Assembly: GCA_041661345.1 (NCBI GenBank)
Contig: JBAZUO010000002.1
Span: forward strand, 6,447 to 70,446
From: Candidatus Omnitrophota bacterium
GTDB lineage: Bacteria; Omnitrophota; Gorgyraeia; 2-01-FULL-45-10
Reading direction: 5' to 3'
DNA: 64,000 bases
Shown: positions 17,153 through 50,254 of the stretch, one piece after another
Layout of the letters: every line of letters begins with the position of its first letter
Position numbering within the stretch: the stretch's first letter is position 1
Position numbers and translations under genes: made by a program
The notes under the pieces: generated by a model
Databases searched by the model: none
What the model saw: the letters and a program-made list of their open reading frames with translations, nothing else
What the model was told of the DNA's origin: nothing

Positions 17153-17168
17153 TGGATATCTTACGATT

Positions 17169-22688: not shown

Positions 22689-22696
22689 GGGTTCAT

Positions 22697-23143
22697 ATGC
22701 CGCCGATCAAAAGGATAGTGACAAAACAACTGGGTGAGCTCCTGGTGGAGAGGGGTATAATTAATGAATCCCAGCTGGAGAAGGCCCTTAGGATCCAAAA
22801 AGATAAGGGCGGGTTGATAGGGCAGATACTCGTAATGCTTGGTTTTGCCAAGGAAGAGGAGATAGCTCAAGCCCTGACGGTCCAATATGGATTTCCATAC
22901 CTTCCGCTGGAGTGTTATGAGATGAATGCCGATGCCGTGAAGATGATACCGGAAAACGTCTGCGTCCAATACAATCTCATAGCGGTTGATAAGATAGGAG
23001 ACACGCTAACCATAGCGATGTCAAATCCGCTGAACTTCCAGGCCGTAGAGGATATAGAAACGCTCACAAAGTGCAAGGTTCAGGTATTTGTCAGTACCAT
23101 GACGGATATAAATAATTCTATAAAAAAACATAATAAAAAATGA
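22697..23143 (+). CDS. stand-alone T2SSE_N / MshEN-like domain protein
   Basis: 148 aa consisting only of a GspE/PilB N-terminal domain. It has the tandem 24-aa motifs QLGELLVERGIINESQLEKALRIQ, KDKGG, LIGQILVMLGFAKEEEIAQALTVQ. There is no ATPase core. Confidence 0.8.
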   Translation: MPPIKRIVTKQLGELLVERGIINESQLEKALRIQKDKGGLIGQILVMLGFAKEEEIAQALTVQYGFPYLPLECYEMNADAVKMIPENVCVQYNLIAVDKIGDTLTIAMSNPLNFQAVEDIETLTKCKVQVFVSTMTDINNSIKKHNKK

Positions 23144-24876
23144 GCGTTGACTTAAAAGATAAACTCACCAAGATACTCATAGAGCGGAAGCTTCTGCAAT
23201 CCAGCGACCTCGAGAAGGCGCTTTCCGTCCAGAAGCAGAGAGGCGGATCTTTAAGCGATATCCTCGTGGAATTAGGCCTCGTTTCAAAGAACGACCTGAT
23301 GGTAGCTATAAGCCACGGGCTGGGCATTCCGCTGATAAATCTCTCCCGGTATAAGATCGATCCCGATGTGATAAAGCTGATCCCAAGAAAGACGGTAAAA
23401 AATTATAAGATAATGCCGATTGCCAAGATGGGCACTACGCTGACGATAGCGATGGCCGATCCTCTGAATGTGTTCGCCTTGGACGACCTTAAGGTCCTGA
23501 CGGGACTAAAAATAAATCCCGTCATAACGACCGACAAGGAGATCTCCGAAGCCATAGGGCGCTATTATGATCAGGATTCTTACGCTGCTATAGAGAAGAT
23601 AGTGGATGACATGTCCACTATCAGCGACATCAAGCTGATCGAAGATGCCGTTCATGGCGTAGAGCAGAATTCGTCAGATATAATGAAGATGACGCTGGAG
23701 GCGCCAGTCGTAAAGATCACAAATCTTCTGCTGACGGAGGCTGTCAACCTGAGGGCGAGCGACGTATTGATCGAACCTATGGAGGACAAGCTGAGGATCA
23801 GGTATAGGGTCGATGGTATATTACAGGAAGGCAGAAATCCGCCCATAGCACTGCATAGCGCTATAGTTTCCAGGCTGAAGGTCGTGTCGGAACTCGACAT
23901 AGCGGAGCGCCGCCTTCCTCAGGACGGAAGATTTAAGGTCAAGCTTCACGGCCGGGAAGTGGATTTCAGAATCTCGGTGCTGCCGACAAGCATGGGAGAA
24001 AAGGTCGCGCTCCGAATACTCGATAAGTCGCAGGCCACGCTCGATATTGATAAGTTAGGTTTTGACCAACTGTCCATAGACCTGATAAAGAAGGAAGCGT
24101 CGAAACCGCACGGAATGATACTCATTTGCGGGCCGACCGGATGCGGTAAGACGACGACGCTTTACTCTGTGCTGGAATATGTTAACTCCCCGGCAAAGAA
24201 TGTGATCACCGTAGAGGATCCGGTTGAATATCAGATCGAAGGCATAAATCAGGTTACGGCCAGGCCCGAGATCGGGCTCAGTTTCGCGAACGCCCTTAGG
24301 TCCATATTGAGACAAGACCCGAACATAATAATGATAGGCGAGATAAGAGATTTTGAAACCGTTGATATCGCGATAAAGGCGGCCCTTACCGGCCACCTCG
24401 TCTTGAGCACACTTCATACCACAACGGCAACCGGATCGATAATCCGATTAGTGAACATGGGGGTGGAACCGTTTCTCATCACATCATCCTTGATTCTCGT
24501 CGGTGCACAAAGGCTCGTGCGTAAGATCTGTCAGCAGTGCAAAGAACCATATGAACTGAGTAAAGACGCTATAGACAAACTCAAGATAAAACCGGATAAG
24601 GGCAAGGTAATTTTCTACCGGGGCAAGGGATGCAGTGCCTGCGGCAATACGGGATATAAAGGCCGCATCGGTTTGTTGGAGGTATTGGTGTTAAGCCCAA
24701 AGATAAAAGCTCTTGTATTGGAAAACGCGCAGGAGTATGTCATAAGAGATCTGGCAAGGAGCGAGGGCATGAAGACACTCAGGGAAAACGGTATACAGAA
24801 CGTTCTGAACGGATTGACAACGATAGACGAAGTCCTTCGCGTTACCGTAGGGGAACAGGACATAGATACGGTGTGA
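23140..24876 (+). CDS. pilB: type IV pilus assembly ATPase PilB/GspE paralogue 1
   Basis: 578 aa with a T2SSE_N domain, Walker A GPTGCGKTT, DPNIIMIGEIRD, and tetracysteine CQQC...CSAC. ATGA overlap with the upstream gene. Confidence 0.92.
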   Translation: MSVDLKDKLTKILIERKLLQSSDLEKALSVQKQRGGSLSDILVELGLVSKNDLMVAISHGLGIPLINLSRYKIDPDVIKLIPRKTVKNYKIMPIAKMGTTLTIAMADPLNVFALDDLKVLTGLKINPVITTDKEISEAIGRYYDQDSYAAIEKIVDDMSTISDIKLIEDAVHGVEQNSSDIMKMTLEAPVVKITNLLLTEAVNLRASDVLIEPMEDKLRIRYRVDGILQEGRNPPIALHSAIVSRLKVVSELDIAERRLPQDGRFKVKLHGREVDFRISVLPTSMGEKVALRILDKSQATLDIDKLGFDQLSIDLIKKEASKPHGMILICGPTGCGKTTTLYSVLEYVNSPAKNVITVEDPVEYQIEGINQVTARPEIGLSFANALRSILRQDPNIIMIGEIRDFETVDIAIKAALTGHLVLSTLHTTTATGSIIRLVNMGVEPFLITSSLILVGAQRLVRKICQQCKEPYELSKDAIDKLKIKPDKGKVIFYRGKGCSACGNTGYKGRIGLLEVLVLSPKIKALVLENAQEYVIRDLARSEGMKTLRENGIQNVLNGLTTIDEVLRVTVGEQDIDTV

Positions 24877-24877
24877 T

Positions 24878-26599
24878 ATGGCTGAATCATTAAAAGAAAA
24901 ACTGATAGATATACTGATAAAGGGAAACCTTGTAAAGCAGAAGGATCTTGACAAGGCCCTCGAAGTTCAGAAGAAATCCGGCGGGAATCTCGGCAAGATA
25001 CTCGTATCAAAGGGGTATATTTCGGAAAAGGACCTTATGGTGTCGATATCGAGGCAGCTCAGTATACCGCCTATAGACTTATCCAAATATAAGATAACGC
25101 CGATGGTCATCCAGCTTATTCCCGAAAAGACCGCCAAAAAGTATTCGCTGATTCCGGTCTCCAAACTTGGTATGACGCTTACAGTGGCAATGGCCGATCC
25201 GTTGAACGTCCTGGCAATGGATGAGGTCAAGATACTTACCAATTACAAAATAGATCCGGTCATTGCCACGGAGAACGACATCAAGGAAGCGATAGCCAGC
25301 TATTACGGTACACATACCCAGGAGATATCGAAGCTTCTGGAAGAGATGCCGCAGGAGGACGTGGAGGTTACCGAGGAAGAAGAAGAGAAAATCGATGTAA
25401 GCGAGGTGGCTGAGGAGAGCCAGAAGGCACCCATAGTTAAGGTGGTGGGGCTTATACTTAATGAAGCGATGAAGCGCCGCGCCAGCGACATACACATAGA
25501 GCCATCCGAGAAATTTTTACGGGTCAGGTACAGAGTAGACGGTACCCTGCATGAGGCACTGACGCTTCCCAAGAAGAACCAGAACGCGGTTATAGCCAGG
25601 GTGAAGATCATGTCGAAGCTGGACATAACAGAAACGAGAATACCGCAGGACGGGCGCTTCAAAATAAGCTTCGAAGGAAAGGAAATAGATTTCAGAGTCT
25701 CTGTGCTTCCGATACAATTCGGCGGCAAGATAGTATTAAGAGCCCTCGATAAATCCAGCTTAAGTCTAGGACTTGAGAAGCTGGGATTTTTGCCCAAGCC
25801 TTTGGCTACTTTTCAAACAGCGCTTAAGAGGCCTTATGGAATGATATTGGTAACCGGTCCGACGGGAAGCGGAAAGTCAACAACTCTATATTCTATTATC
25901 AATCAACTTAATACGCTGGAGCGGAACATCGTGACGCTGGAGGATCCGGTTGAGTATGAACTTGGCGGGATCACACAGATCCAGGCCAAGCCGGAGATAG
26001 GGCTTACGTTTTCTAATGGGCTTAAGTCGGTCTTGAGACAGAGCCCGGATATAGTGATGGTCGGTGAGATTAGAGACTCCGAGACCGCCGACATAGCGAT
26101 AAAGGCGTCTCTTACCGGACAATTGATATTGAGTACGCTGCATACCAATGACGCCGCCGGCGCGATAACGAGGCTTATAGATATGGGGGTGGAACCTTTT
26201 TTGGTATCCACAAGCCTCGTCCTATCTTCAGCGCAAAGACTGATGAGGAAGATCTGCATGAATTGCAGAGAGGCTATCGAAATACCTAAAAGCGTTCTGG
26301 AGAGGATCGGATTAAAACCCGATGAACTTTCAAAAAAGGGCATAAAAAGTTTTTACAAAGGTAGAGGATGCACGAAATGCAATAATACCGGGTACTACGG
26401 CAGGATAGGCATTCTCGAAACACTGCTTCTTGATGATAAGGTCAGGGATATGGTAATGAAAAGAGTTTCCAGCGACGATATAAAAAATTATGCCATAAAA
26501 GAACTCGGCATGTTGACATTGAGGGATAACGCGCTGGAGAATTTTGTTAATGGCATAACGACTCTCGAGGAAGTCATGAGAGTAACTTCGGAGGACTAA
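24878..26599 (+). CDS. pilB: type IV pilus assembly ATPase PilB/GspE paralogue 2
   Basis: 573 aa with a T2SSE_N domain, Walker A GPTGSGKST, SPDIVMVGEIRD, and tetracysteine CMNC...CTKC. Confidence 0.92.
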   Translation: MAESLKEKLIDILIKGNLVKQKDLDKALEVQKKSGGNLGKILVSKGYISEKDLMVSISRQLSIPPIDLSKYKITPMVIQLIPEKTAKKYSLIPVSKLGMTLTVAMADPLNVLAMDEVKILTNYKIDPVIATENDIKEAIASYYGTHTQEISKLLEEMPQEDVEVTEEEEEKIDVSEVAEESQKAPIVKVVGLILNEAMKRRASDIHIEPSEKFLRVRYRVDGTLHEALTLPKKNQNAVIARVKIMSKLDITETRIPQDGRFKISFEGKEIDFRVSVLPIQFGGKIVLRALDKSSLSLGLEKLGFLPKPLATFQTALKRPYGMILVTGPTGSGKSTTLYSIINQLNTLERNIVTLEDPVEYELGGITQIQAKPEIGLTFSNGLKSVLRQSPDIVMVGEIRDSETADIAIKASLTGQLILSTLHTNDAAGAITRLIDMGVEPFLVSTSLVLSSAQRLMRKICMNCREAIEIPKSVLERIGLKPDELSKKGIKSFYKGRGCTKCNNTGYYGRIGILETLLLDDKVRDMVMKRVSSDDIKNYAIKELGMLTLRDNALENFVNGITTLEEVMRVTSED

Positions 26600-26600
26600 G

Positions 26601-27815
26601 GTGGCAAACTTCAAGTATGTCGCTAAGGATCAGGAGGGTAAGAGCGTCACGGGTGTTTTTGAGGCGGCGAACAGGCAGGAGGTTATCAACGCGCTTAGAA
26701 AGAAAGACCTCATAATAGTTTCGGTTGGCGAGGCGTCATCTAAATTTAGCAGCATATTGTCTTTTGGGAGTAAGAAGAAAATAAAACTTGAAGACCTGGT
26801 TGTTTTTTCGCGCCAGCTTTCAACGATGGTCGACGCGGGCATACCGCTCGTTGGAGCTCTCGATATACTTGGCGAGCAGATGGACAATAAGACGTTCGGC
26901 GCTATTATAATAGGTGTCCGCAACGATGTTGAGACGGGTTTAAGCCTTTCCGACGCAATAGGTAAGCACAAAGACGTATTTTCATCTCTTTATGTGAACA
27001 TGGTCAAGGCCGGGGAGTCGAGCGGTATGTTGGATGAGATACTTGATCGTCTTGCCGAATATCTGGAGAAGACGAGCGCTCTTCAACATAAAGTGAAGGG
27101 TGCGCTTGTGTATCCGGCGGTTATTAGCTCTATGGCGCTGGGCATAACATTGATAATGCTTTTAAAGGTTATACCTGTGTTTAAGGATATGTTCGAAGGT
27201 ATGGGTGCAAAGCTTCCGACGCCTACGGCGGTTCTTATAACGGTAAGCGATTTTTTACGGCACTATTTCATCCTTGGAGCCGCGGCCCTGGTGGGCATAT
27301 GGATACTCTTATCGCGATACATAAAAACAGAGAAGGGGCGGCTGCAAGTTGATTCGATCCTGCTTAAAATGCCCATATTCGGTATATTGTTCAGGAAAGT
27401 CGCCATAGGTAAATTTACAAGGACTTTATCAACACTTATCAAGTCAGGCGTTCCGATACTTGCTGCCCTTGAGATAGTGGGCAAGACCGCCGGCAATACG
27501 GTGGTGGAAAAGGCCATAGAAAACGTCCGCTCCAATGTCAGGGAAGGCGAAAACATAGCTGAGCCACTCGCCAGATCTAAAATATTCCCACCCATGGTGA
27601 CGAGGATGGTGTCGGTTGGTGAACAGTCCGGAGAGCTTGAAAAGATGTTGTCAAAGATAGCGGATTTTTATGATGAACAGGTTGATACGGCTGTCGGTTC
27701 TCTTACAAGTATGATGGAACCGCTCATTATAGCGTTCCTGGGGATAGTGATAGGTTCGATCGTTATATGTATGTTCCTGCCAATATTCAAGTTAAGCTCC
27801 ATTGTCAGTTCTTAA
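26601..27815 (+). CDS. pilC: type IV pilus platform protein PilC (GspF family)
   Basis: 404 aa with a duplicated T2SSF domain (FSRQLSTMVDAGIPL and FTRTLSTLIKSGVPI). GTG start after a GAGGA SD. Confidence 0.92.
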   Translation: MANFKYVAKDQEGKSVTGVFEAANRQEVINALRKKDLIIVSVGEASSKFSSILSFGSKKKIKLEDLVVFSRQLSTMVDAGIPLVGALDILGEQMDNKTFGAIIIGVRNDVETGLSLSDAIGKHKDVFSSLYVNMVKAGESSGMLDEILDRLAEYLEKTSALQHKVKGALVYPAVISSMALGITLIMLLKVIPVFKDMFEGMGAKLPTPTAVLITVSDFLRHYFILGAAALVGIWILLSRYIKTEKGRLQVDSILLKMPIFGILFRKVAIGKFTRTLSTLIKSGVPILAALEIVGKTAGNTVVEKAIENVRSNVREGENIAEPLARSKIFPPMVTRMVSVGEQSGELEKMLSKIADFYDEQVDTAVGSLTSMMEPLIIAFLGIVIGSIVICMFLPIFKLSSIVSS

Positions 27816-27853: not shown

Positions 27854-27882
27854 TTGACAATACGGGTTTTGTAGGGTATACT
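27854..27882 (+). promoter_or_regulatory. sigma70-type promoter of the major pilin gene
   Basis: TTGACA (27854-27859), 17-nt spacer, TATACT (27877-27882). It implies a ~170-nt leader before ATG 28059. Confidence 0.6.
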
Positions 27883-28058: not shown

Positions 28059-28409
28059 ATGATGATCAGGATGAATAGGAAAGGCTTTACGCTCGTTGAA
28101 ATTATGATAGTAGTCGCAATTATTGGTTTACTCGCGGCGATAGCCATTCCGAACTTCGTCAGGGCAAGAACAAGAGCTCAACAGGAAGCTTGTATAGCTA
28201 ACCTGAAGCAGATTGAAGGCGCGATACAGGTTTGGGCCGTAGATACGGGTCAGGCCGAGACCGCGACTCCTGCTTGGAGTGCGTTGACTCCTACTTATAT
28301 TAGGACGAAACCGAGTTGTCCGTCAGCGGGAGCTACCGCTTATGACACACTCCCGGCTGTTAGTGGAAGGCCGACTTGCTCTGCCGGTGGAACACACGTT
28401 CTGCCATAA
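28059..28409 (+). CDS. prepilin-type major pilin (PilA / GspG-like)
   Basis: Class III signal MMIRMNRKG|FTLVEIMIVVAIIGLLAAIAIPNF with Glu at +5. 116 aa with C-terminal Cys pairs. It has its own promoter and a strong terminator. Confidence 0.9.
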   Translation: MMIRMNRKGFTLVEIMIVVAIIGLLAAIAIPNFVRARTRAQQEACIANLKQIEGAIQVWAVDTGQAETATPAWSALTPTYIRTKPSCPSAGATAYDTLPAVSGRPTCSAGGTHVLP

Positions 28410-28447
28410 GGCGAGGTTTGGTATGACTGCATAATTTCTGCAGCTTG

Positions 28448-28486
28448 CCCCGCGTTTTCTTTAGGAAAGCGCGGGGTTTTTATTTT
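28448..28486 (+). terminator. Rho-independent terminator after the major pilin gene
   Basis: CCCCGCGTTTTC (28448-28459), loop TTTAG, GAAAGCGCGGGG (28465-28476), then TTTTTATTTT. Confidence 0.85.
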
Positions 28487-28568: not shown

Positions 28569-28925
28569 ATGACAATAACTTCCCGTAGAGGTTTTACGCT
28601 AGTCGAAATAATGATCATAGTTGCCATCATTGCAATAACGCTTTCTATCGCCGTCCCCAATTATCTGACGATCAGCAAAATATCAAAGCGCACCGTTTGT
28701 ATAAATAACATCAAGAAAATACTGGGGGCAGTGGAACAGTACGTGATCGAAAATAATATCAGCGTAGGCACCGCACTTTCCTCTACTCAGGAAGATGAAG
28801 TGTATTCGAAATACTTAAGGGGTGGGGTTCCGGTATGCCCATCGGGCGGGGAATATACCATAGAGACGATCGGATCCAATCCGCAGGTCAGCTGCTCAAA
28901 GGAAGAAGATGGACATACGCTTTAA
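28569..28925 (+). CDS. prepilin-type N-terminal cleavage/methylation domain protein (minor pilin)
   Basis: MTITSRRG|FTLVEIMIIVAIIAITLSIAVPNY. Confidence 0.85.
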   Translation: MTITSRRGFTLVEIMIIVAIIAITLSIAVPNYLTISKISKRTVCINNIKKILGAVEQYVIENNISVGTALSSTQEDEVYSKYLRGGVPVCPSGGEYTIETIGSNPQVSCSKEEDGHTL

Positions 28926-28926
28926 T

Positions 28927-29376
28927 ATGAGTTCAACTAACCGGAGAGGTTTAACGCTGGTCGAAAGCGTGGTCAGTATATTTATACTGACCATCGTGTT
29001 GATCGGTTTATTAAGCACATTCTACGTGGCTAAATCAACATCATCGCATGCAAAACATAGAATGGCCGCGATAAACATTCTGCAGGTGTATATTGAGCAG
29101 GAAGTCCTGGCCGGGTATGATGGCGGCGGAGGAACGACAGGTAATTATTTCGTTACGGTAACATCCGCAAGTCCTGTCGCTGTAGTTATGGATGAAAATT
29201 TAAACGGCGCGATAACGCCGGATCCCTATTTTCCGGATAATATTAAGAGTGCGGATGGAACTCTGCTGACGTATAAAGGCATACCGTATAAAATAGTCGG
29301 ATTTGTCGTAAGCTGGACTGAAAAAAATGGTCAGGCTTGCTCTGAAAGGGCATGTTGTTATGTATCCTATCATTAG
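28927..29376 (+). CDS. prepilin-type minor pilin (GspI/PilV-like)
   Basis: MSSTNRRG|LTLVESVVSIFILTIVLIGLL. I prefer ATG 28927, just after the upstream stop, over the track start 28909. Confidence 0.8.
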   Translation: MSSTNRRGLTLVESVVSIFILTIVLIGLLSTFYVAKSTSSHAKHRMAAINILQVYIEQEVLAGYDGGGGTTGNYFVTVTSASPVAVVMDENLNGAITPDPYFPDNIKSADGTLLTYKGIPYKIVGFVVSWTEKNGQACSERACCYVSYH

Positions 29377-29377
29377 G

Positions 29378-29962
29378 ATGAGAGGCCGAAAAGGTTTTAC
29401 GCTTGTTGAAATCATGGTGGCCACATTCATAACTTTGTATACCCTGATGGCGGCATGGTCCTCATATATCATGTTCTGGACGTGGTGGCATGAGACGAGC
29501 CCTGAAGTTGAGGCTCAGAGGATGGCCAGGATCACCATATCAGCGATTGTAAATGGTAAAATAGATCCGACGGCCGGGACTTATACCATCGGAACCACGA
29601 CATTTCATAGGCGAAATGGTATAGCACAAGCTACGATGGAGCCATCATTTCCTTCAACGCAAGCTATAAATTTTGGATTGGAACCGGACACCGCGAATGT
29701 AAGGTCGTATTATCTCGGGGTGGATCCCGAGACGAATCATAACGTCGTATATTACAAAGACAGCACTAGTACCGTTAGTAAAATAGATTCAACAATCGGG
29801 ATAACGGATTTGACATTCACGAACGTTTTCAATGGGTCGATAACGACCAACATGATCACGGTTACCGTTACCGTGGACAGGGATGTGATCGATATGGGCG
29901 GTAGAACGCGCACCATACATGTTGTTTATAGTCAACTGGTCTTCTTAAGGAATGTCTCGTAA
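29378..29962 (+). CDS. prepilin-type minor pilin (GspJ/PilW-like)
   Basis: MRGRKG|FTLVEIMVATFITLYTLMAAW. Alternative starts are 29360 and 29327. Confidence 0.8.
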   Translation: MRGRKGFTLVEIMVATFITLYTLMAAWSSYIMFWTWWHETSPEVEAQRMARITISAIVNGKIDPTAGTYTIGTTTFHRRNGIAQATMEPSFPSTQAINFGLEPDTANVRSYYLGVDPETNHNVVYYKDSTSTVSKIDSTIGITDLTFTNVFNGSITTNMITVTVTVDRDVIDMGGRTRTIHVVYSQLVFLRNVS

Positions 29963-31325
29963 AATGAAAAATAAAAAAGGTTTTATACTTGTAATAACGA
30001 CGGCCTTCATTGCATCCCTTCTTGTGGTGGCATTAGCCATCATAGGGATGAGTTGCGGAGAGATTATCCAAACCAGGGTTTACAACGATCAGTCGACCGC
30101 CTATTATGTAGCGCGGTCCGGGGCTGAGATGATGTACAACTACCTTAAAGCCAAGGAGGGCGAAACTATAACATGGCCTCAATCGATGCCGTCGGGGGAT
30201 AGCGTTGTCAGGACTCGCGGCAGCGGCGGAACGATCGTAGGCAATTTTGTGGCAACAGCGGATACAATTTCATCGAATATGTTTGGCATCGTATCAACCG
30301 GCTCCGTCAATGGCAGGACCGCCAAAGTCACCGTTAAATACGGTTGCGATGCGGCATTTGAAAATGGCCGCCCGATCGGGTGTGCCGGCGCCATGTCGCT
30401 TAAAGGAGCCGGCTGGTGGATCTTCAAATCATATGTCCGGGCTGAGGGGCCGCTCGCGAGCGGCTCTGCGATAACATCGAATAATTTCGTCCAGATATCG
30501 GGTACTACCCTGCAGAATCAGACCTTTGAACCGACGAATTTTTGGTGGAAATATAATTCGGCTACAGGTACTTGCAGCACTCCTAAGGCAGTCGGTGATA
30601 CAAACGGCGATAATGCTTATCTGACAGATGCAAATGGTGATGGTAGTATAACGCTTGCGGACGCGGGCGAAAATATTGCGGCGCAGGAAGCCTTTATTAA
30701 CGATGATATCAATAGCGACGGCGTGGTAAACAACAAAGACGCGTTCATTTCTTATTATACGGTTGAGCTCAATCACCAGGGGCTGAATATAGGGAAGAAC
30801 GAGACGCGCTATTACGGCAGTAGCCAGAGTTTTAATTACAATAGTATCCCGACCGGAGTTCCTATAGTATTTGTGAATGGTGATGTTAACATAAGTTTTA
30901 ACAGCACGGCGTGGTGGGCGCAGAATAGTAATAACACCATAGTTGCGACAGGTGATATCAATATAGCTCAACCGACGAATACCGCCGGAAACACGTTAAC
31001 GCTGATATCTTATGGTGATGTGAATACAGGCGGGGTCAATTTTTTCGGCGGAATTAGCGGGAATCTGGTGGTATGTTCGGTGGGGGATTTTAATGCCTAC
31101 TATGGCGGGAAATCGAATGGCGCGATATTTTCCAATGGACAAGTCAATATCGACACCGTGTACCCTATCTCGGGCTTACTCAACCGTGATATTAAAAAGG
31201 GAACGACTAATTGGAGTGATTCCACTAACTGGCCGTTAGGCCTTCCTCAGAATTATGGCAGTTGGCCTTTAAAGTTTGCCATAAAGGCCGATAGCGTCGT
31301 TAAACCGATATGGCAAAGGGAATAA
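29952..31325 (+). CDS. large PilX/GspK-like minor pilin with EF-hand/dockerin-type Ca loops and a beta-helix-like C-terminus
   Basis: KNKKG|FILVITTAF lacks Glu+5. It has a PilX_N-like STAYYVARSGAE and the loops DANGDGSITLAD and DINSDGVVNNKD. The C-terminus has repeats GDVNISF, GDINIAQ, GDVNTGG. Alternative ATG at 29964. Confidence 0.7.
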   Translation: MSRKMKNKKGFILVITTAFIASLLVVALAIIGMSCGEIIQTRVYNDQSTAYYVARSGAEMMYNYLKAKEGETITWPQSMPSGDSVVRTRGSGGTIVGNFVATADTISSNMFGIVSTGSVNGRTAKVTVKYGCDAAFENGRPIGCAGAMSLKGAGWWIFKSYVRAEGPLASGSAITSNNFVQISGTTLQNQTFEPTNFWWKYNSATGTCSTPKAVGDTNGDNAYLTDANGDGSITLADAGENIAAQEAFINDDINSDGVVNNKDAFISYYTVELNHQGLNIGKNETRYYGSSQSFNYNSIPTGVPIVFVNGDVNISFNSTAWWAQNSNNTIVATGDINIAQPTNTAGNTLTLISYGDVNTGGVNFFGGISGNLVVCSVGDFNAYYGGKSNGAIFSNGQVNIDTVYPISGLLNRDIKKGTTNWSDSTNWPLGLPQNYGSWPLKFAIKADSVVKPIWQRE

Positions 31326-31333: not shown

Positions 31334-31825
31334 ATGAAAAAGAATATCAGGAAATATATAATTACAGCAATTACAGTAGCCGCGGTTGTTATAGTTTTTT
31401 TCTTAGCCGGAAAGCACGGGCGATATGCTGTAAATAAGTTTGAAATAAAAAAGATATCGCATCCGATATTACCCAGAAGCGAAGTGCCTGAGCGTGTTAT
31501 CTATAGTATCAATGATGTGAAAAAACCTTTGGCGGATGGACCCGCGGAAAAGGTCAATGACCTTGAGTCGATGTATAAAAAATATCCCAAAGAACGCGCC
31601 GGTATAAACATGATAGAGGAATGGTCGAAGGTGAAGCCCGAAGACAAGGCCGAGATGGCTAAAGGCATCACGGGAGCCATAAAAGAATCGGAAGAGAAGC
31701 TGATGGAGAACCCGGATGACAAACGCGCGAAGTCGAAATTGATCATATCGCAGATGCTGCAAAAATTGATGGCCAGCAATTTTAATTACAAGATTAAAGA
31801 GCAAGAGGCGGGCGATGGCAGATAA
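31334..31825 (+). CDS. hypothetical membrane-anchored charged protein in the pilus locus
   Basis: N-terminal TM segment IITAITVAAVVIVFFLA followed by a K/E-rich region. I recognise no family. Confidence 0.5.
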   Translation: MKKNIRKYIITAITVAAVVIVFFLAGKHGRYAVNKFEIKKISHPILPRSEVPERVIYSINDVKKPLADGPAEKVNDLESMYKKYPKERAGINMIEEWSKVKPEDKAEMAKGITGAIKESEEKLMENPDDKRAKSKLIISQMLQKLMASNFNYKIKEQEAGDGR

Positions 31826-32816
31826 CAAGGCCGCCAGGGTGGGCCTGGATATAGGCACGGACGCTGTTAAGATAGTCGCGGCCTCCTCCGCGGCCGATAA
31901 GACTACGCTCATAGCCCTTGGTATGAAAGATATACGCGGTGTGTCACGCCAGGAACTGCCGGAAGTCATAAAACAGCTTGCAGCAACCGCCAAAATATCA
32001 CAAAAGGATGTAAACATATCTATCTCGGGCTCATCGGTGATAGCGAGATTCATAACGATGCCGAAGATGGACAAGGAGGCCTTAAAGGGCGCAATAAGGT
32101 TCGAGGCCGAGAAATTTATACCGTTCGATATAAATGACTGCATGGTGGATTTTCAGGTGATGGAGAGGGATAAGGCCGAAAATAAGCTTAACATACTTCT
32201 CGTAGCGGCTAAAAAAGAGGTTGTCCTGGAAAAGATAAAAATCGCGGAAGCGGCCGGATTTTCTGTACGGTTAGTGGACGTAGACGGTTTCGCGCTGGCC
32301 AACAGTTTTTTTAAGAATTTTCCTGCTCTCGAGCCGGACAAGGCATGCGCCCTTCTGAATATAGGCGCAACTTTTACGAACCTATGCATACTAAAAGGCG
32401 GTTCGCTTTATTTTTCAAGGGACGTGGCTTTGGGCACCAACGAATTCTCGACTTCGATCGCAAAAAAATTAAATGTGGATCGAAAGGCCGCGGACGAACT
32501 ATCGGTGTCTGCCGGGCCCAAGGCCGCGGAAGTAACGGATTGTATGAAAACGGTTTTTGGCAATCTTCTCGAAGAGGTCAAGCTCTCTTTTAATTATTAT
32601 GAAAATCAGGGCGGCAAGAATATAGATGAAGTATATATATCGGGTGGAGGCGGCAGCCTCTTAAGTATAGCCGAGGTATTCGCGGAGTCCTTGGGATCGA
32701 AGCCATCTATCTGGAAACCGCTTGAGTTTATGGGTAAGCCGGCTGCAGGTATCGATGGAGAGCTTTTGGCGCACGAAAGTTTCTTTGCGATAGCGGCCGG
32801 CCTTGCGTTGAGATAA
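31815..32816 (+). CDS. pilM: type IV pilus assembly protein PilM (actin-like)
   Basis: VGLDIGTDAVKIVA, an FtsA/PilM-like fold, and YISGGGGSL. Confidence 0.88.
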   Translation: MADNKAARVGLDIGTDAVKIVAASSAADKTTLIALGMKDIRGVSRQELPEVIKQLAATAKISQKDVNISISGSSVIARFITMPKMDKEALKGAIRFEAEKFIPFDINDCMVDFQVMERDKAENKLNILLVAAKKEVVLEKIKIAEAAGFSVRLVDVDGFALANSFFKNFPALEPDKACALLNIGATFTNLCILKGGSLYFSRDVALGTNEFSTSIAKKLNVDRKAADELSVSAGPKAAEVTDCMKTVFGNLLEEVKLSFNYYENQGGKNIDEVYISGGGGSLLSIAEVFAESLGSKPSIWKPLEFMGKPAAGIDGELLAHESFFAIAAGLALR

Positions 32817-32820
32817 CTAT

Positions 32821-33528
32821 ATGATAGAGATTAATTTACTACCGGAAGAGTACAGGAAGAAAGAGCCTAAGTTCAAGTCGATAGATTTTGGCGGCTTTAA
32901 CATCGCGGGAATACTGCCGAAAAAGCTGCCGCTTGCCAAAATAGGCATTGTAGCAGCTATCGCGCTAGTATCTTTTCATCTGATATTATTGGCAATAGGA
33001 ATAAACAGCAAAACGTCATTCGGCTCTCTTTCAAAGAAATACGATTTGCTCCTTCCGCAAAAAAAGGAAGCGGATTTGCGTAAAACCGATCTTGAGTTGA
33101 TAAATAAAAAGGTGAGCGCTATAGACGGGCTGATGGTAAAGCGTTTCAGTTGGGCCAGGAAACTTAACAGCTTAAGCGATTGCATGACTCCCGGCATCTG
33201 GCTTAACGATTTATCATACGAAGAGAAGGAAGGCGATAGGGTCGTCATGGTCAACACCAAGCCGCAGAACGGCAAGACCAAAAAAACCGGCTCCAAGGCT
33301 GTCGCGGAGAAGGTTGTTTTACGATATCTGACTTTGTCCGGGTATGCTTCGAGTATGGGCGAGCAGGGCACGGCATTGATAGGTAAGTTTATAAAGAGCC
33401 TGAAGGATAACAGTCAATTCTTTTCCGATTTCAGTGAAATAAAACTCGACTCCATCAAGAGTGAAAAATTTATGGATCAAGAAGTCATGAATTTCAAGAT
33501 CACCTGTCAATTTAAGGAAAGCGAATAA
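32821..33528 (+). CDS. pilN: PilN-like pilus alignment protein
   Basis: N-terminal MIEINLLPEEYR motif, one TM segment, and its position after pilM. Confidence 0.75.
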   Translation: MIEINLLPEEYRKKEPKFKSIDFGGFNIAGILPKKLPLAKIGIVAAIALVSFHLILLAIGINSKTSFGSLSKKYDLLLPQKKEADLRKTDLELINKKVSAIDGLMVKRFSWARKLNSLSDCMTPGIWLNDLSYEEKEGDRVVMVNTKPQNGKTKKTGSKAVAEKVVLRYLTLSGYASSMGEQGTALIGKFIKSLKDNSQFFSDFSEIKLDSIKSEKFMDQEVMNFKITCQFKESE

Positions 33529-33544
33529 TAGGGGTAGCAGAAGA

Positions 33545-34117
33545 ATGGCATTGCAAATAGACATAAAGAATCCGAAACAGCAGATGATGATATTGATGGC
33601 GCTCGGTGTAGTCTTAGGCGTAGTGCTTTACTTTAGCCTGCTGCTTAAGCCCCAGGTCTTTGGTGTTTTTAACATAGCTGTAAAAAATAACAAGATGAAG
33701 GGCGATCTTAAGAGTATCGAAGGTGATATTTCGAACATAGAGAGATATAAGAAGGATATAGCGAGTTACAAAGATAAGGTTGATAAATATGAACGCATGC
33801 TACCGGCTGAACAGGAAATACCAAGCCTTCTGGAAACCCTCTCAAGTATGGCAAGGGGGTCGGGCGTTAAAATTGTAGGCATAATGCCGGTGCCGGTAAA
33901 AGAAAGCAAGGTTAAAGACGAGCAGATATATCAGGAGATACCTATTCTTATAAGTGCTAAGTCCGGCTATCATGAACTCGGGAGCTTTCTGGCAAACCTT
34001 GAAAATTCAGACAGATTTATGAAGGTCGTGGACATAGGTATCAAATCAAATAAACTGACGCCGAAAAAACATGATGTCGAACTTCTGGTGTTGACATATA
34101 TACTTCTGAAAAGGTGA
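33545..34117 (+). CDS. pilO: PilO-like pilus alignment protein
   Basis: One TM segment, a coiled coil, and IPSLLETLSSMARGSGVKIVGIMP. It lies between pilN and pilP/Q. Confidence 0.72.
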   Translation: MALQIDIKNPKQQMMILMALGVVLGVVLYFSLLLKPQVFGVFNIAVKNNKMKGDLKSIEGDISNIERYKKDIASYKDKVDKYERMLPAEQEIPSLLETLSSMARGSGVKIVGIMPVPVKESKVKDEQIYQEIPILISAKSGYHELGSFLANLENSDRFMKVVDIGIKSNKLTPKKHDVELLVLTYILLKR

Positions 34118-34120
34118 ACA

Positions 34121-34486
34121 GTGAAAAGAACAATTCTTACATGCTTGCTGATTTGCTTAGGTATGGTCCCGATGGCCGAATCCCAAATTTTTAGATACGA
34201 GTCCCACGGTAAGCGCGATCCGTTTGTGCCGCTGATCGGCCAGGACAAGGCCGCGGCAGCGGGATTGATAGACGTAACCTCCGTCGAAGATATAAAGATC
34301 GAAGGTATCGCCGTAAGGGCGGACGGTAAAAGGACGGCGATCATAAACGGCGAGCTGATGAAAGAAAATGATAAGGTAGGAGAGGTCGAGGTGGTAAAGA
34401 TCGATCCGAGATCAGTAACTATTTTGATAAGCGGTAAAGAGTTTAAGGTAAAATTGCCCGAAGAAGGAGGATCAAAGAGTGAATAA
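34121..34486 (+). CDS. pilP: PilP-like small periplasmic protein
   Basis: Signal-like N-terminus, a KRDPFVPL motif, and its position directly upstream of the secretin. GTG start. Confidence 0.6.
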   Translation: MKRTILTCLLICLGMVPMAESQIFRYESHGKRDPFVPLIGQDKAAAAGLIDVTSVEDIKIEGIAVRADGKRTAIINGELMKENDKVGEVEVVKIDPRSVTILISGKEFKVKLPEEGGSKSE

Positions 34487-36188
34487 AAGGTTTAGGGCCT
34501 CAGTCATTTTGATAACGATACTATCATTTAGTTTATCGACGATATTTTCGGGTTACTCTATGGCACAGGATAAGAAGGAAGCCGTGCAGCAAGAAACGGT
34601 GAACGCATCAGCGGCCGTGCCGACAGCAGAAAAGGCCACGCCTCCGGTTCAGGCATCTGCCGAGCCTGCAACCGAACCTGCAAAAGAGGCCGGCGGCGAG
34701 CCTCAGGTGGTGGTGACTGTTCCTGAAGTTCCGGAAAAGGCCGACGAACCTAAAGAAGAGGCCGCTCCGCTGGTTGAAGCTGGTAATATAACCGTAAACT
34801 TTAAAGGCGCCGATATCAAGACGGTCCTTGCCTATATATCCGAGGTCTCAAACGTAGATATCGTGCCGGCGCCCGATGTGAAGGGTGTAGTGGACTTAAA
34901 GCTTACAAATAAACCCTGGAAGGTAGCCCTCGACATAATTTTAAGAAATTACGGTTTTGCCTATGAGAGGGAAGGCGACATCATAAGAGTGGTGACCGTT
35001 AATCAGCTGAAGCAGGAAGAATTGACCAGCCAGGCGTTCAATCTTAATTACAGCAAATCTAAAGACGTAGTGGAATCGATAAAGAACATTGTGAGTGAAA
35101 AGGGCAAGGCGGCATACGACGATAGGACAAACACTATAATAGTTACCGATATACCGACCAATATTTACAAGATAAGCCAGATAATCACAAGGCTCGATCG
35201 GCAAACCAAACAAGTTTTGATAGAGGCCAGAGTTATAGAGACCGTTCTTGACGATAGTGAAAAACTTGGCATAGACTGGAATGTCAAATTCTCGGCATCC
35301 GGCGCTAAGAGGCCTACGACTTTCCCATTTGACCAGGTATCGGTACCTGCCGGGCTTACACACTATTTTCCTCAGGTCCAGACCAATACTGACACGACTG
35401 TTGCCGACACTGGCGGTGGCGCGACGGGATCTTCGGTAGTGTCTGCCGCTGTCTTTCCTAATACATATGGAGGGTCGCAAGCCTTTCCGTATGCTACTTC
35501 TACCGACTTCCAATATGGAACTCTTGATTTTTCAGAGTTTAAAGCTGTGTTGGAAATGATAAAATCAAGGTCAAATACGGATATCGTATCCAATCCAAGG
35601 ATCGCTACTCTTGACAATAAGGAAGCTATTATCAACGTAGGTCAGACGCTCAACATGCCGAAGTATGAGAGGAATTCTTCGACCGGCAAGATGGAAATAA
35701 CCGGCTATGAACCGAAGATCCTCGGTGTCCTGTTAAAGGTCACTCCGCATATCAATGATAATAACGAGATAGTGGTGGACCTCCAGCCGGAGATAAGCGA
35801 CCTATTAAGATATGATACCCTTGACAAATCCAGTGGAGTAGTCGCGCCGGTTTTTTCCAATCGATTTGCCAAGACCCAGGCTATGATAAAAGACGGCCAG
35901 ACCATATTTATAGGCGGCCTTATAAAAGAGAACGATGTCGATACGAAGACGAAACTGCCGTTTATAGGAGATATGCTTGGAGACGTTCCATATCTGGGGC
36001 TGCTTTTTACAAAGAAGTCGAAAACGAAACAGAAGACAGAGATGATATTTTTCGTTACGGTAAATTTGATGGCCGATGGCAAGGATATAAAGGGTTCACC
36101 TAAGGCGGATAAGGCGCTGAATCCGGCGTATACTATAACTCAAGAACCCGATCCGGGTGTCAAAAAGAAAGTTAAAAAGAGGCAATAG
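34479..36188 (+). CDS. pilQ: type IV pilus secretin PilQ
   Basis: Signal peptide, a P/A/E-rich linker, and N0-like NVDIVPAPDVKGVVDLKL. The secretin C-domain has QVLIEARVIE and LPFIGDMLGDVPYLGLLF. Confidence 0.92.
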   Translation: MNKRFRASVILITILSFSLSTIFSGYSMAQDKKEAVQQETVNASAAVPTAEKATPPVQASAEPATEPAKEAGGEPQVVVTVPEVPEKADEPKEEAAPLVEAGNITVNFKGADIKTVLAYISEVSNVDIVPAPDVKGVVDLKLTNKPWKVALDIILRNYGFAYEREGDIIRVVTVNQLKQEELTSQAFNLNYSKSKDVVESIKNIVSEKGKAAYDDRTNTIIVTDIPTNIYKISQIITRLDRQTKQVLIEARVIETVLDDSEKLGIDWNVKFSASGAKRPTTFPFDQVSVPAGLTHYFPQVQTNTDTTVADTGGGATGSSVVSAAVFPNTYGGSQAFPYATSTDFQYGTLDFSEFKAVLEMIKSRSNTDIVSNPRIATLDNKEAIINVGQTLNMPKYERNSSTGKMEITGYEPKILGVLLKVTPHINDNNEIVVDLQPEISDLLRYDTLDKSSGVVAPVFSNRFAKTQAMIKDGQTIFIGGLIKENDVDTKTKLPFIGDMLGDVPYLGLLFTKKSKTKQKTEMIFFVTVNLMADGKDIKGSPKADKALNPAYTITQEPDPGVKKKVKKRQ

Positions 36189-49315: not shown

Positions 49316-50254
49316 ATGAATAGATGCAGGGCTGACCTGACCAAGATCAGGACGATACCGCTTAATGCGCGTAAGTGCAAAGTGGCCATAAAAGACTTTG
49401 CCAAGCTTACAAAAAAGGGCTCCAGTTTCAAGAGTTTCTACGAATCACTTCCCGATATACTCGCAAGCCAGAATTTTCGTGTTCTTGTCGATAGAATAGC
49501 CGAATCCTACAGAAAAGATAAGATGGTTATATTGATGATGGGTGCACATGTCATAAAATGCGGCCTATCGCCGCTTATCATAGATCTCATGAAACGCGGG
49601 GTGGTTAAGGCGGTCGCGTTAAACGGCGCGGGCGTTATTCACGATACAGAGATAGCGATGATCGGCAGGACGAGCGAAGACGTCGGTGAAGGAATACTCG
49701 ACGGGTCGTTCGGTATGGCGAAGGAGACGGCGAGCTTCATAAACGGCGCGATAAACGCCGGATTCGGCGATGGTATAGGGATAGGCGAGGCGGTCGGTTC
49801 GGCCATTGTAAATAATAAGCTGCTCCATAAAAATTTAAGCATACTTGCCAACGGATACGAATTGAACGTCCCCGTAACGGCGCACGTCGCGATAGGCACG
49901 GATATAATTCACCAGCACCCGTCGGCAAACGGTGAGGCGATCGGAGAAGGTTCGCTTCTGGATTTCAGGAATTTCATATACAGTATTTCGCGGCTCGCGG
50001 GAGGCGTGGCAATCAATCTAGGCTCCGCAGTGATCCTTCCCGAAGTATTTTTGAAGGCGGTTACTGTCGCCAGAAACCTCGGTAATAAGTTGGACGTATT
50101 TACTACCGCGAATTTTGACATGATAAGCCAGTACAGGCCGTATCAGAATATACTATCGCGGCCGACATCCAAGGGTGGCAAAGGCTACAATATCACCGGG
50201 CATCATGAGATAATGATACCGCTTCTTTACCGTTCCATTATCGAGAAGATCTAA
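49316..50254 (+). CDS. uncharacterised protein with a deoxyhypusine-synthase-like (DHS-like) pattern
   Basis: VILMMGAHVIKCGLSPLIIDLMKRGVVKAVALNGAGVIHDTE parallels the DHS segment GYTSNLISSGIRE...VDVLVTTAGGVEEDL as I recall it. NVPVTAHVAIGTDIIH and GVAINLGSAVILPE also parallel it. The assignment is by eye only. Confidence 0.35.
   Translation: MNRCRADLTKIRTIPLNARKCKVAIKDFAKLTKKGSSFKSFYESLPDILASQNFRVLVDRIAESYRKDKMVILMMGAHVIKCGLSPLIIDLMKRGVVKAVALNGAGVIHDTEIAMIGRTSEDVGEGILDGSFGMAKETASFINGAINAGFGDGIGIGEAVGSAIVNNKLLHKNLSILANGYELNVPVTAHVAIGTDIIHQHPSANGEAIGEGSLLDFRNFIYSISRLAGGVAINLGSAVILPEVFLKAVTVARNLGNKLDVFTTANFDMISQYRPYQNILSRPTSKGGKGYNITGHHEIMIPLLYRSIIEKI

Follow-up and report, generated by a model that had tools for sequence, protein, structure and literature searches.

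The last and largest minor-pilin gene of a type IVa pilus operon in Candidatus Omnitrophota very probably encodes a ComZ-like pilin of the PilX class, in which a large beta-solenoid is predicted to be grafted into the pilin fold and a pair of EF-hand-type loops is set within the solenoid. Taken as a whole, the likely explanation is that of a tip pilin stabilised by a structural calcium clasp. The combination of pilin and beta-solenoid is a known design; the calcium-type loop pair that it carries here was previously unreported.

The pilus operon

The gene is found in the window, the 64-kb stretch of DNA that was analysed, where one operon encodes PilT, two PilB proteins, PilC, four prepilins, PilM, PilN, PilO, a PilP-like protein and a secretin. 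The type IVa pilus operon is complete and comes from a MAG of Candidatus Omnitrophota; the same gene order occurs in two further Omnitrophota MAGs (L001 and L008). All features of the operon, and of the tip pilin gene within it, are on the + strand. The motor and platform genes (21624-27815) specify PilT, a stand-alone MshEN protein, two PilB/GspE ATPases and PilC/GspF, as identified by the Pfam models T2SSE, MshEN and T2SSF. Next comes the gene for the probable major pilin (28059-28409), a GspG/PilA/ComGC-like protein of 116 aa that matched N_methyl at E 2e-9 and scored below the cut-offs of the NCBIfam pilin models. It is flanked by a promoter-like site (27854-27882) and by a terminator with a 14-bp hairpin (28447-28477).

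Three prepilin genes follow (28569-29962), specifying proteins of 118 aa, 155 aa (probable start 28927) and 211 aa (probable start 29378) with matches to N_methyl and weak matches to GspG/H and GspI/PilV/ComGE; a search of the PDB by sequence with two of these upstream minor pilins found no relatives. Gene order and size suggest that the three, together with the tip pilin that ends the set, correspond to an H-I-J-K-like group. Directly after the tip pilin gene is an ORF for a membrane-anchored protein of 163 aa without a family match (31334-31825); homologues of it follow the tip pilin gene in L001 and L002, in L003 a gene of the same size follows it, and in L008 none does. Genes for the alignment complex and outer-membrane channel complete the operon (31815-36188), encoding PilM, PilN, PilO, a T2SSB/PilP-like protein and the secretin (Pfam PilM_2, E 7.5e-49; PilN, PilO, T2SSB and Secretin).

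No ORF of the size of PilY1 is present in the 64-kb window, the largest being that of a 918-aa IleRS. A prepilin peptidase, competence genes and the 'symbiotic' F-type ATPase, which has been reported beside some Omnitrophota pilus loci, were looked for in the window and none was found. Pfam scans covered 54 window proteins, with a few longer ORFs (e.g. 58049-58645 and 62660-63307) lying outside this set; the remaining scanned ORFs are housekeeping genes.

The leader and pilin domain of the probable tip pilin

The tip pilin gene (29952-31325) is an ORF of 457 aa when read from the ATG at 29952. Its translation is the one quoted in an earlier note on this DNA, made from sequence alone, and the motifs named there are all present at the residues and nucleotides given. 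The ATG at 29964 is probably the true start, giving a protein of 453 aa, because an upstream stop codon (29960-29962) ends 2 nt before it, AAGGA is found at 29947-29951, and the NCBI record of an identical protein from an Omnitrophota MAG has a length of 453 aa. Residue numbers used here are those of the 457-aa version.

The protein begins with a class III prepilin leader, MSRKMKNKKG (29952-29981), which was read off the sequence and is predicted to be cleaved between G10 and F11. A leader of this class without Glu at mature position +5 (KKG/FILVI) had been noticed earlier, and the feature proved to be a family trait. Among 38 homologues, which make up the family set (mean column identity 48%), G10 is kept in 35 and F11 in 33, while position +5 is I, L, V or M in every one and never Glu. 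Beyond the leader, residues 11-67 (29982-30152) form a long N-terminal alpha-1 helix that includes the PilX_N-like STAYYVARSGAE (AF2 helix 8-67), and a pilin-domain beta-sheet is predicted at residues 85-133 (30204-30350; AF2 strands 85-87, 95-107, 110-119 and 122-133). The C-terminal segment (aa 421-457; 31212-31322), with conserved W421, P-L-G-L-P and W454 and an AF2 strand at 438-440, probably supplies the last strand of this sheet, a return that is suggested by the topology of ComZ (PMC6561018).

Scans of the tip pilin itself against Pfam and NCBIfam returned nothing significant, the one match being a spurious one to Membralin; PilX_N (PF14341) did not match at E≤1, T2SSK was absent among the Pfam matches and GspK models were absent among the NCBIfam matches. 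PilX_N did match two of the 38 family members (best E 0.021), and it scored 26.1 and 25.2 bits, around its cut-off of 25.5, on remote relatives that were found with the family profile. A DUF7305 protein, which is PilX-like, was aligned by hhalign with 89% probability over aa 4-150, covering the pilin domain only and leaving the solenoid unaligned. The earlier assignment to the PilX/GspK class of minor pilins is therefore sustained by the leader, by the position and size of the gene in its four-gene set, and by the relatives that match PilX_N.

Beta-solenoid architecture

The AF2 model of the tip pilin had a mean pLDDT of 84.4. Its solenoid is in two parts, one at aa 136-211 (30357-30584), a run of short strands that gave Foldseek matches to ComZ and to DUF3494 ice-binding solenoids, and the other at aa 292-416 (30825-31199), recognised from the strand pattern and from G-[DN]-[VIF]-N strands. 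These motifs start at residues 310, 334, 355, 378 and 396, a spacing of 18-24 residues, are conserved in the family, and each lies on a predicted beta-strand. The earlier note had suggested a beta-helix in the C-terminal ~150 aa; a beta-helix is indeed predicted, but it spans about 136-416 and is not confined to the tail.

When the model was compared with the PDB by Foldseek, ComZ of Thermus thermophilus (6qvi) was the sole match at E≤0.001 (3.9e-8 to 1.3e-6, probability 1.0), and the next matches were DUF3494 ice-binding beta-solenoids (E 1.4e-3 to 5e-2). The family profile (positions 80-132) also aligned to ComZ 80-135, at E 0.005, so that model, fold search and profile all point to a pilin-like N-terminal domain and a large beta-solenoid in one chain. 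Superposition on ComZ was poor (TM 0.22-0.27, rmsd 15-19 Å), with ~10% identity over the Foldseek alignment. The low TM-scores mean that a shared architecture is supported, but a close structural relationship is not. In the model, the D-rich segment (216-276) interrupts the solenoid as an excursion, at what appears to be the place of the 216-301 loop and helix of ComZ and of the long helix of ice-binding proteins. The solenoid gave no sequence-level match to DUF3494 or DUF7305, and nothing suggests that the tip pilin would bind ice.

Calcium-type loops

Two segments of the excursion fit the strict loop pattern D-x-[DN]-x-[DN]-G-x-[ILV]-x3-[DE], and they are its sole matches across the six frames of the 64-kb window. 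Loop 2, DANGDGSITLAD (aa 226-237; 30627-30662), and loop 3, DINSDGVVNNKD (aa 252-263; 30705-30740), both fit the canonical EF-hand scheme of 12 residues, in which positions 1, 3, 5 and 12 would supply oxygen ligands, position 6 is Gly and position 8 is hydrophobic. Given the composition of the protein, 6.6e-4 matches would be expected; at least one match was obtained in 0.05% of 20,000 shuffles, and two in none. The key positions are also well conserved, both in loop 2 (D1 in 35/38 homologues, G6 in 31/38, V/I/L8 in 35/38, D12 in 34/38) and in loop 3, the ancestral one (D/N1 in 37/38, D5 in 36/38, D12 in 38/38). The two canonical loops that the earlier note had pointed out thus fit exactly, are far from chance and are kept by the family. 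A further member of its series, loop 1, DTNGDNAYLTDA (aa 216-227; 30597-30632), which contains DTNGDNAYLTD at aa 216-226, is a partial loop; it is of the D-x-N-x-D type and conserved at D1 (36/38), N/D3 (33/38) and D/N5 (29/38), but its position 12 is not acidic and it shares D226 with loop 2.

The loops are flanked by two predicted helices, a linker helix that joins loop 2 to loop 3 (aa 242-251; 30675-30704), which is seen in the full AF2 model and at positions 35-44 of the sub-model, and the helix DAFISYYTVELNHQG (aa 261-276; 30732-30779), in which D263, Y269, T270 and L273 are invariant and which may be equivalent to the helix of ice-binding proteins. No helix leads into loop 2. In the full model DSSP assigned a beta-bridge between I233 and V259, the residues at position 8 of the two loops, and the bridge recurred in the sub-model (positions 26 and 52), resembling that of paired EF-hands. 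The sub-model, of the isolated 77-aa module (208-284), had a pLDDT of 91.8, and the full model had values of 88-94 over 210-290. Neither loop satisfies the strict pattern in 9 of the 38 homologues, 4 of which have Lys at position 5 of loop 2, so calcium binding may not be universal in the family. On balance, calcium binding by loops 2 and 3, in a mainly structural role, is the reading that we favour for the tip pilin.

Family and evolution

The tip pilin family was found only in Omnitrophota in the collections searched, where a genome-collection scan seeded with a ten-sequence alignment recovered six loci and one seeded with the single tip pilin recovered none. Its remote relatives are missing aa ~195-247. 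The closest of them, P0072 and P0074, have kept a canonical loop 3 and the helix, and the others have a degenerate remnant of loop 3 and a conserved aromatic helix. Because only the last loop and the helix are retained among remote relatives, the loop pair appears, from the sequences, to be a clade-specific accretion, with loop 3 and the helix being ancestral and loops 1 and 2 inserted later. It would provide an example of a paired calcium site that was assembled by adding loops beside an existing single loop and helix.

Alternative explanations

One rival reading, which goes back to the earlier note, is that the D-rich module is a true dockerin; through a calcium-dependent contact it would bring a cohesin-bearing partner, for instance a giant or surface protein, to the tip of the pilus. 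Several observations favour it: Dockerin_1 matched 7 of the 38 family members at E≤1 (best E 1.3e-4), two dockerins (2y3n_B and 5lxv_B) aligned with the sub-profile over both loops (E 0.02 and 0.034), the isolated module is predicted, with the high pLDDT given above, to fold alone, and giant proteins rich in dockerins occur in some Omnitrophota (preprint 10.1101/2023.11.21.568195). However, the tip pilin itself has no Dockerin_1 (PF00404) match in Pfam, and EF-hand proteins score equally with dockerins in both profile and fold searches. EF-hand_5 matched five family members (best E 0.021), and the 40 weak matches of the sub-profile in the PDB were nearly all EF-hand proteins, dockerins or lanmodulin, while phmmer with the tip pilin against PDB sequences retrieved one dockerin only, at E 0.49. 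Neither an EF-hand model nor a structure matched the module significantly (profile best E 0.017, Foldseek best E 0.5), and the Foldseek matches of the 77-aa module had TM values below 0.45 and dockerin-normalised TM values of 0.37-0.44. The description 'spaced like a dockerin' holds approximately, since the loop starts are 26 residues apart as against 31-33 in the two aligned dockerins. The two segments agree at 7 of 24 positions, all in or beside the loops, and the duplicated segment of ~22 residues is absent; a conserved A-D-A-G shortens the exit helix of the first loop. Relatives that have no calcium loops still possess the second helix, which is ancestral, invariant and aromatic, and it is therefore unlikely to be a free cohesin-binding face. 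The module, moreover, lies within the solenoid and not at an end of the chain, and no cohesin domain was detected among the 54 window proteins run through Pfam. On fold search, loop spacing, duplication and ancestral helix the dockerin fold was rejected, and a true dockerin is considered most improbable; the loop pair is probably a calcium clasp. It is also very unlikely that the loops are a mere sequence resemblance within an acidic, Asn/Gly-rich linker that holds no metal. The absence of a significant database match for the module, the nine homologues without a canonical loop and the abundance of N (9.8%) and G (11.2%) throughout the tip pilin would agree with such a linker, but two exact 12-residue matches 26 residues apart are expected by chance at ~2e-7, the ligand positions are conserved far above the family mean for column identity, and the position-8 bridge and high pLDDT over 210-290 suggest an ordered unit in the model. 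Lanmodulin was considered since it was among the weak profile matches and has closely spaced loops. A Pro at loop position 2 marks lanmodulin loops; the residue at this position is A, T, V or I in the tip pilin, and a lanthanide-selective, lanmodulin-like reading was rejected.

Two further alternatives concern the machine that the protein serves. As ComZ is the sole significant structural match and binds DNA (PMC6561018), the tip pilin might, as has been proposed for ComZ, be the DNA receptor of a competence pilus; PilT is available for retraction, and the probable major pilin scored 49.6 bits on the ComGC model, under its 75-bit cut-off. This is thought unlikely. At ~10% identity, and with DNA binding by ComZ needing specific lysines (PMC6561018), a similar architecture is not enough to transfer that activity; solenoid and module have an acidic or neutral composition, with 12 D+E against 2 K+R in segment 212-280, and competence families had no match among the scanned window proteins (ComEA, ComEC and DprA were not sought by name). 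Moreover, the type IVa pili of Omnitrophota have been connected with the attachment of these bacteria to host cells (PMC10066038). The operon could instead be type II secretion-like, with the tip pilin capping, as GspK does, a short pseudopilus in the periplasm in place of a surface pilus, given that two of the small pilins match the GspG model (E 2e-13 and 5e-10, under its cut-off), that T2SSB-like and T2SSL-like matches are present, that the secretin has a GspD N0 domain, and that GspK is a structural relative of the ComZ pilin domain (PMC6561018). Such an assignment is quite unlikely in view of the encoded retraction ATPase PilT and of PilM_2, PilN and PilO, and no matches to T2SSK, GspC or GspM were found with Pfam and NCBIfam; in addition, such loci have been assigned to type IVa pili across Omnitrophota, and V. 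archaeovorus expresses pili of this class (PMC10066038). A role in secretion or DNA uptake may nevertheless be left open by the major pilin, which is small and GspG/ComGC-like.

Proposed function and significance

For the preferred reading, that of a PilX-class tip pilin with a structural calcium clasp, the following course of events is envisaged. Prepilin peptidase would cut after G10, and the hydrophobic alpha-1 helix would then pack with the three smaller minor pilins encoded upstream, giving a complex of four minor pilins that would prime filament assembly and end at the pilus tip. The tip location, as we infer it, follows from the bulk of the solenoid, which is too large to be accommodated elsewhere. 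The triangular, ice-binding-type beta-solenoid, grafted into the pilin fold as in ComZ and the cyanobacterial PilX proteins, would probably cap the filament and act as its contact surface, taking on some of the work that PilY1 does elsewhere. Loops 226-237 and 252-263 would form a paired EF-hand-like unit, preceded by a partial third loop (216-227), and the helix that leaves the last loop (261-276; invariant D-A-F-x-x-Y-Y-T-x-x-L) would be the ancestral helix of the solenoid family. Outside the cytoplasm the loops may bind calcium and serve as a clasp that holds this helix and both solenoid halves in place. The stability of the tip complex and, through it, pilus formation or adhesion would then require calcium, as has been demonstrated for PilY1 of other bacteria.

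A more active role for calcium was also entertained, in which the tip subunit is a calcium-switched adhesin that arose by accretion of an EF-hand pair onto the ancestral helix of a ComZ-type solenoid. Although this is doubtful, it would mean that tip stability, priming, adhesion or retraction depend on external calcium, and that a single pilin unites the plug and calcium-sensing roles of PilY1, in bacteria that are ultra-small and possibly host-dependent.

Type IVa pili are near-universal in Omnitrophota and have been proposed to serve attachment to host or prey cells (PMC10066038). The tip component of these pili that would make the contact had not been singled out before, and the tip pilin family is an obvious candidate for it. 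The solenoid tip pilin design of ComZ and cyanobacterial PilX is here extended to a third, distant phylum, and the occurrence of a solenoid pilin in a third phylum supports the view that pilins of this kind take the place of PilY1 in systems that lack it. The EF-hand-type pair within the solenoid offers a simple, testable handle on a possible calcium dependence of tip-complex stability. Should the loops be purely structural, the finding would amount to no more than a useful annotation of ~40 'hypothetical proteins'.

Relation to other pilins and calcium-binding proteins

Calcium is bound in the crystal structure of GspK, the tip pseudopilin of type II secretion. GspK is, like the Omnitrophota tip pilin, the last and largest of its minor subunits (I-J-K), is without Glu5 and caps its filament. 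The topology of its pilin domain is related to that of ComZ, but it has an alpha-helical insertion elsewhere in the sheet and no beta-solenoid (PMC6561018).

A comparison with the calcium site of PilY1, made in the earlier note, is a reasonable one, particularly as the window is without a gene of that size. An EF-hand-like calcium motif stabilises PilY1 and is required for pilus formation (PMC8833165), and PilY1/PilC, like the tip pilin as envisaged here, is a component of the tip complex with a D-x-[DN]-x-D-G-type motif. PilY1 is not a pilin, however; it is far larger, is built on a beta-propeller and shows no homology, and its site is a single 9-residue inter-strand loop as opposed to a helix-flanked pair of 12-residue loops. 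The solenoid pilin may have taken over part of the role of PilY1, which is absent from the locus.

Type I dockerins and paired EF-hands (polcalcin, calmodulin lobes and lanmodulin) likewise have two 12-residue D-x-[DN]-x-D-G-x-[IV]-x3-D loops, with a helix after each loop and a position-8 bridge, but their loops are 31-36 residues apart, not 26, and the Omnitrophota module sits within a solenoid, with an ancestral helix as its base. DUF3494 ice-binding proteins share the triangular, right-handed beta-solenoid with a helix alongside.

ComZ has the greatest likeness in overall plan, with a GspK/PilX-type pilin domain, a grafted triangular beta-solenoid and a long mid-solenoid excursion that includes a helix (216-301 in ComZ, 212-291 in the Omnitrophota pilin); it also lacks a canonical pilin signature and is encoded alongside smaller minor pilins. 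It differs in coming from another phylum and in binding DNA via lysines, where the Omnitrophota module is strongly acidic. ComZ has been described as a competence-associated tip pilin of solenoid design, with no mention of calcium (PMC6561018). The cyanobacterial PilX homologues, as described in a preprint (10.64898/2026.02.12.705559) that does not mention calcium-binding loops and from whose description the likeness is known, are PilX-class minor pilins interrupted by an ice-binding-like solenoid, and have been proposed as a tip plug in organisms without PilY1. Paralogous minor-pilin sets can coexist in cyanobacteria, and the same is seen in L002 and L003, where a DUF7305 PilX-like paralogue adjoins the family member and has the pilin domain in common with it.

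Gene Product and Distribution

The open reading frame at 29952-31325 (+) encodes a prepilin-type subunit without Glu5, which belongs to a type IVa pilus operon together with three smaller minor pilins and is predicted from structural modelling to carry a ComZ-type solenoid. A ComZ/PilX-type solenoid-bearing pilin, with its place at the tip predicted, is a design already known; what is new is the embedded, clade-specific pair of EF-hand-type loops, putative calcium sites, within it. The 457-aa frame described in an earlier note was present, with the translation as quoted, and all of the motif positions listed there were confirmed. The true start is more likely ATG 29964, giving a product of 453 aa (residue numbers used here count from ATG 29952). 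The gene upstream ends with a stop codon at 29960-29962, 2 nt ahead of this ATG, with AAGGA at 29947-29951, and an identical public protein of 453 aa ('hypothetical protein WC738_00640, Candidatus Omnitrophota bacterium') comes from a 97.5-kb contig. The two genes upstream have in-frame ATGs (28927 and 29378), each 2 nt past the preceding stop. The longest-ORF starts of the three consecutive genes (28909, 29327 and 29952) overlap the preceding gene, and judged from sequence the alternatives 28927, 29378 and 29964, each of which yields a short basic prepilin leader, are the likelier ones.

Homologues numbered 42, mostly full length (about 445-498 aa) and 31-81% identical, all from metagenomes or MAGs and, where an organism label was given, always Omnitrophota. 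When 1.84 billion representatives were searched exhaustively with a profile, just 35 matched at E<1e-30, and a tail of ~500 weaker matches covered the pilin portion, the late solenoid or the two together. Among GTDB species representatives there were six loci, five of them from Omnitrophota and one labelled Planctomycetia. The homologue at the latter (L006; CAYGRZ010000053.1, 'uncultured Planctomycetia bacterium') is 51% identical, and the label probably stems from faulty binning or labelling, the alternative being horizontal transfer. G-1 and F+1 are conserved family-wide, and Glu never occurs at +5. A Pfam scan of the protein itself gave no match; PilX_N matched two family members weakly, and its score in remote relatives rose to 26.1 bits, with 25.5 as the cut-off. 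With hhalign, aa 4-150 aligned to a PilX-like paralogue of the DUF7305 family (89% probability).

Pilus Operon and Neighboring Genes

The gene sits within a complete type IVa pilus operon, all on the + strand. PilT (21624-22688) is followed directly by a stand-alone protein of 148 aa comprising only an MshEN domain (22697-23143), two tandem PilB/GspE ATPases, both with MshEN domains (23140-24876 and 24878-26599), and PilC (26601-27815). Prepilin genes of 116 aa (28059-28409), 118 aa (28569-28925), 155 aa (28909-29376) and 211 aa (29327-29962) precede the gene studied here, and a membrane-anchored ORF (31334-31825), PilM (31815-32816), PilN (32821-33528), PilO (33545-34117), a T2SSB/PilP-like protein (34121-34486) and the secretin (34479-36188) follow it. 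From this gene order, the protein is the last and largest of an H-I-J-K-like minor-pilin set. The 116-aa protein is the probable major pilin, since its gene is preceded by a near-consensus promoter-like site (TTGACA-17-TATACT, 27854-27882) and followed by a strong 14-bp GC-rich hairpin with a T-run (28447-28477). Such a layout is usual where a major pilin is strongly expressed and part of the transcription continues into the minor pilin genes. Two further Omnitrophota MAGs (loci L001 and L008) have the same gene order, with homologues 57% and 35% identical. In L001, pilC and the major pilin gene are separated by an extra 498-aa gene without a Pfam match (6304-7800), which the window lacks.

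A HAMP-GAF-GGDEF protein is encoded directly upstream of pilT (20205-21611). Together with the MshEN-only protein and the MshEN domains of both PilBs, it suggests c-di-GMP control of pilus extension and a division of roles between the two extension ATPases. The product of the 163-aa ORF at 31334-31825 combines a membrane anchor at its N-terminus with a charged helical domain, and matched no family. Its homologues follow those of the pilin at L001 (11385-11861; 49% identity) and at L002 (7229-7732; 27%), the L002 copy belonging to an orphan minor-pilin cassette, and none follows the pilin homologue at L008. Other genes of the window are housekeeping (MreBCD, PBP2, RodA, tRNA synthetases, KDO and Lpt genes), and neither cohesin, PilY1, prepilin peptidase nor competence genes were found among the window proteins scanned. 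ORFs at 17124-18416, 49316-50254 and 585-1139 (430, 312 and 184 aa) had no Pfam match at E<=1e-5, and a 585-aa ORF (38042-39799) downstream of the RNase E/G gene had only a weak match to DUF1570.

Predicted Architecture

The AlphaFold2 model, built from an alignment of 38 homologues (the core family), had a mean pLDDT of 84.4. It comprises a long helix (aa 8-67), three long antiparallel strands (95-133), a series of short strands (136-211), a helical excursion (212-291), further short strands (292-416) with a period of 18-24 residues at conserved G-[DN]-[VIF]-N motifs, and a final strand (438-440). A Foldseek search of the PDB gave three matches at E<=0.001, each to a ComZ chain from Thermus thermophilus (6qvi), with probability 1.0 and E between 3.9e-8 and 1.3e-6; DUF3494 ice-binding proteins came next, at E 1.4e-3 and weaker. 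Independently, the best PDB match of the sequence profile was also ComZ (E 0.005), across the pilin sheet. Global TM-scores between model and ComZ were low (0.22-0.27), so the proposal goes no further than a common architecture and, probably, distant homology. In ComZ, a GspK-like pilin domain bears a triangular solenoid akin to ice-binding proteins, inserted ahead of the final strand of the pilin fold; residues 216-301, a loop and a helix, connect the two ends of this solenoid, and the protein has been argued to fit nowhere but the pilus tip (PMC6561018). According to a 2026 preprint (10.64898/2026.02.12.705559), every PilX homologue of cyanobacteria shares the ComZ design, which is proposed there to replace the PilY1 plug. 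The 'beta-helix-like tail' of the earlier note is real in the AlphaFold2 and Foldseek results, but larger than was claimed, with the D-rich segment inside it.

Calcium-Type Loops

By their sequence, loops 2 (aa 226-237) and 3 (252-263) of this segment are canonical EF-hand-type loops. In the 38-sequence alignment, loop 3 has D/N at position 1 in 37/38, D at position 5 in 36/38, I/V at position 8 in 35/38 and D at position 12 in all 38; for loop 2, D at position 1 occurs in 35/38, G at position 6 in 31/38 and D at position 12 in 34/38. Loop 1 (216-227) has ligands 1-3-5 and shares D226 with loop 2, but position 12 lacks an acid. The strict pattern D-x-[DN]-x-[DN]-G-x-[ILV]-x3-[DE] has an expectation of 6.6e-4 per protein of this composition, appeared twice in one shuffled sequence in 0 of 20,000 shuffles, and had no match elsewhere in the window in all six frames. 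Modelled separately, aa 208-284 gave a pLDDT of 91.8. This model and the full one alike contain an isolated beta-bridge at position 8 of both loops (I233, V259), and the module helices span 242-251 and 261-276; a bridge at position 8 with such helices is how paired EF-hands are arranged. Database matches were consistent with this likeness but weak. Dockerin_1 matched 7 of the 38 family members (best E 1.3e-4) and EF-hand_5 matched five, while a sub-profile of the module had 40 PDB matches (E 0.017-3.7), nearly all EF-hand proteins, dockerins or lanmodulin. The same three classes made up the top matches of a fold search, none of them significant (best E 0.5, TM <0.45).

The suggestion of the earlier note that the module could be dockerin-like and bind a cohesin partner was unsupported and is very improbable. 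The loop starts are 26 residues apart, compared with 31-33 in aligned dockerins, and the two segments are alike in their loops only, with no wider duplication. A conserved A-D-A-G truncates the exit helix of loop 2, and the module is internal to the solenoid. Ancestry also speaks against it. In an alignment, remote PilX_N-positive relatives lack aa ~195-247, and with these the linker helix and the first two loops, but retain the aromatic helix and an element resembling loop 3; this element is canonical in two of the proteins (P0072, P0074), degenerate in three (P0085, P0102, P0165) and gone in P0079. Since the aromatic helix is retained without loops 1 and 2, helix 261-276, in which D263, Y269, T270 and L273 are invariant, is an ancestral part of the solenoid domain, and its position suggests that it corresponds to the long helix in ice-binding proteins. 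Loops 1 and 2 are additions within the core Omnitrophota family; the strict pattern and the helix motif D-x-F-x-x-Y-Y are essentially confined to that family and its nearest relatives (111 representatives, at least 300 aa). Two metagenomic proteins, P0070 (589 aa) and P0071 (501 aa), in which the loops have multiplied further, have an enlarged acidic region with about five more D-x-D-x-D-G-type loops at the same insertion point, ahead of the conserved D-G-F-I-Y-Y-T helix; this insertion point seems to be a hot spot for gaining calcium-type loops. The overall interpretation of the earlier note is partly supported, in that pilin class, loops and beta-helix stand, but not the dockerin-cohesin idea or the extent of the tail.

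Proposed Role

Judging by GspK, ComZ and the complexes of minor pilins with PilY1, the protein would prime assembly together with the other minor pilins and then cap the filament, with its solenoid as the exposed surface. The loops would bind calcium outside the cytoplasm and act as a clasp on the ancestral helix and both halves of the solenoid, so that the stability of the tip complex would depend on calcium. This would parallel Myxococcus PilY1, whose calcium-dependent stability is required for pilus formation (PMC8833165). The pilus most likely serves attachment to other cells or surfaces, a role already proposed for Omnitrophota pili (PMC10066038), with DNA uptake or secretion as the alternative.

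P0042 (498 aa), the family member that diverges most, lies outside any pilus-machine operon, in a tandem pair of minor-pilin cassettes (at locus L002, 2394-7732, and likewise at L003, 340-5678), the first of which ends with a different PilX-like solenoid protein of 411 aa (Pfam DUF7305). The arrangement recalls the two priming complexes described for cyanobacteria.
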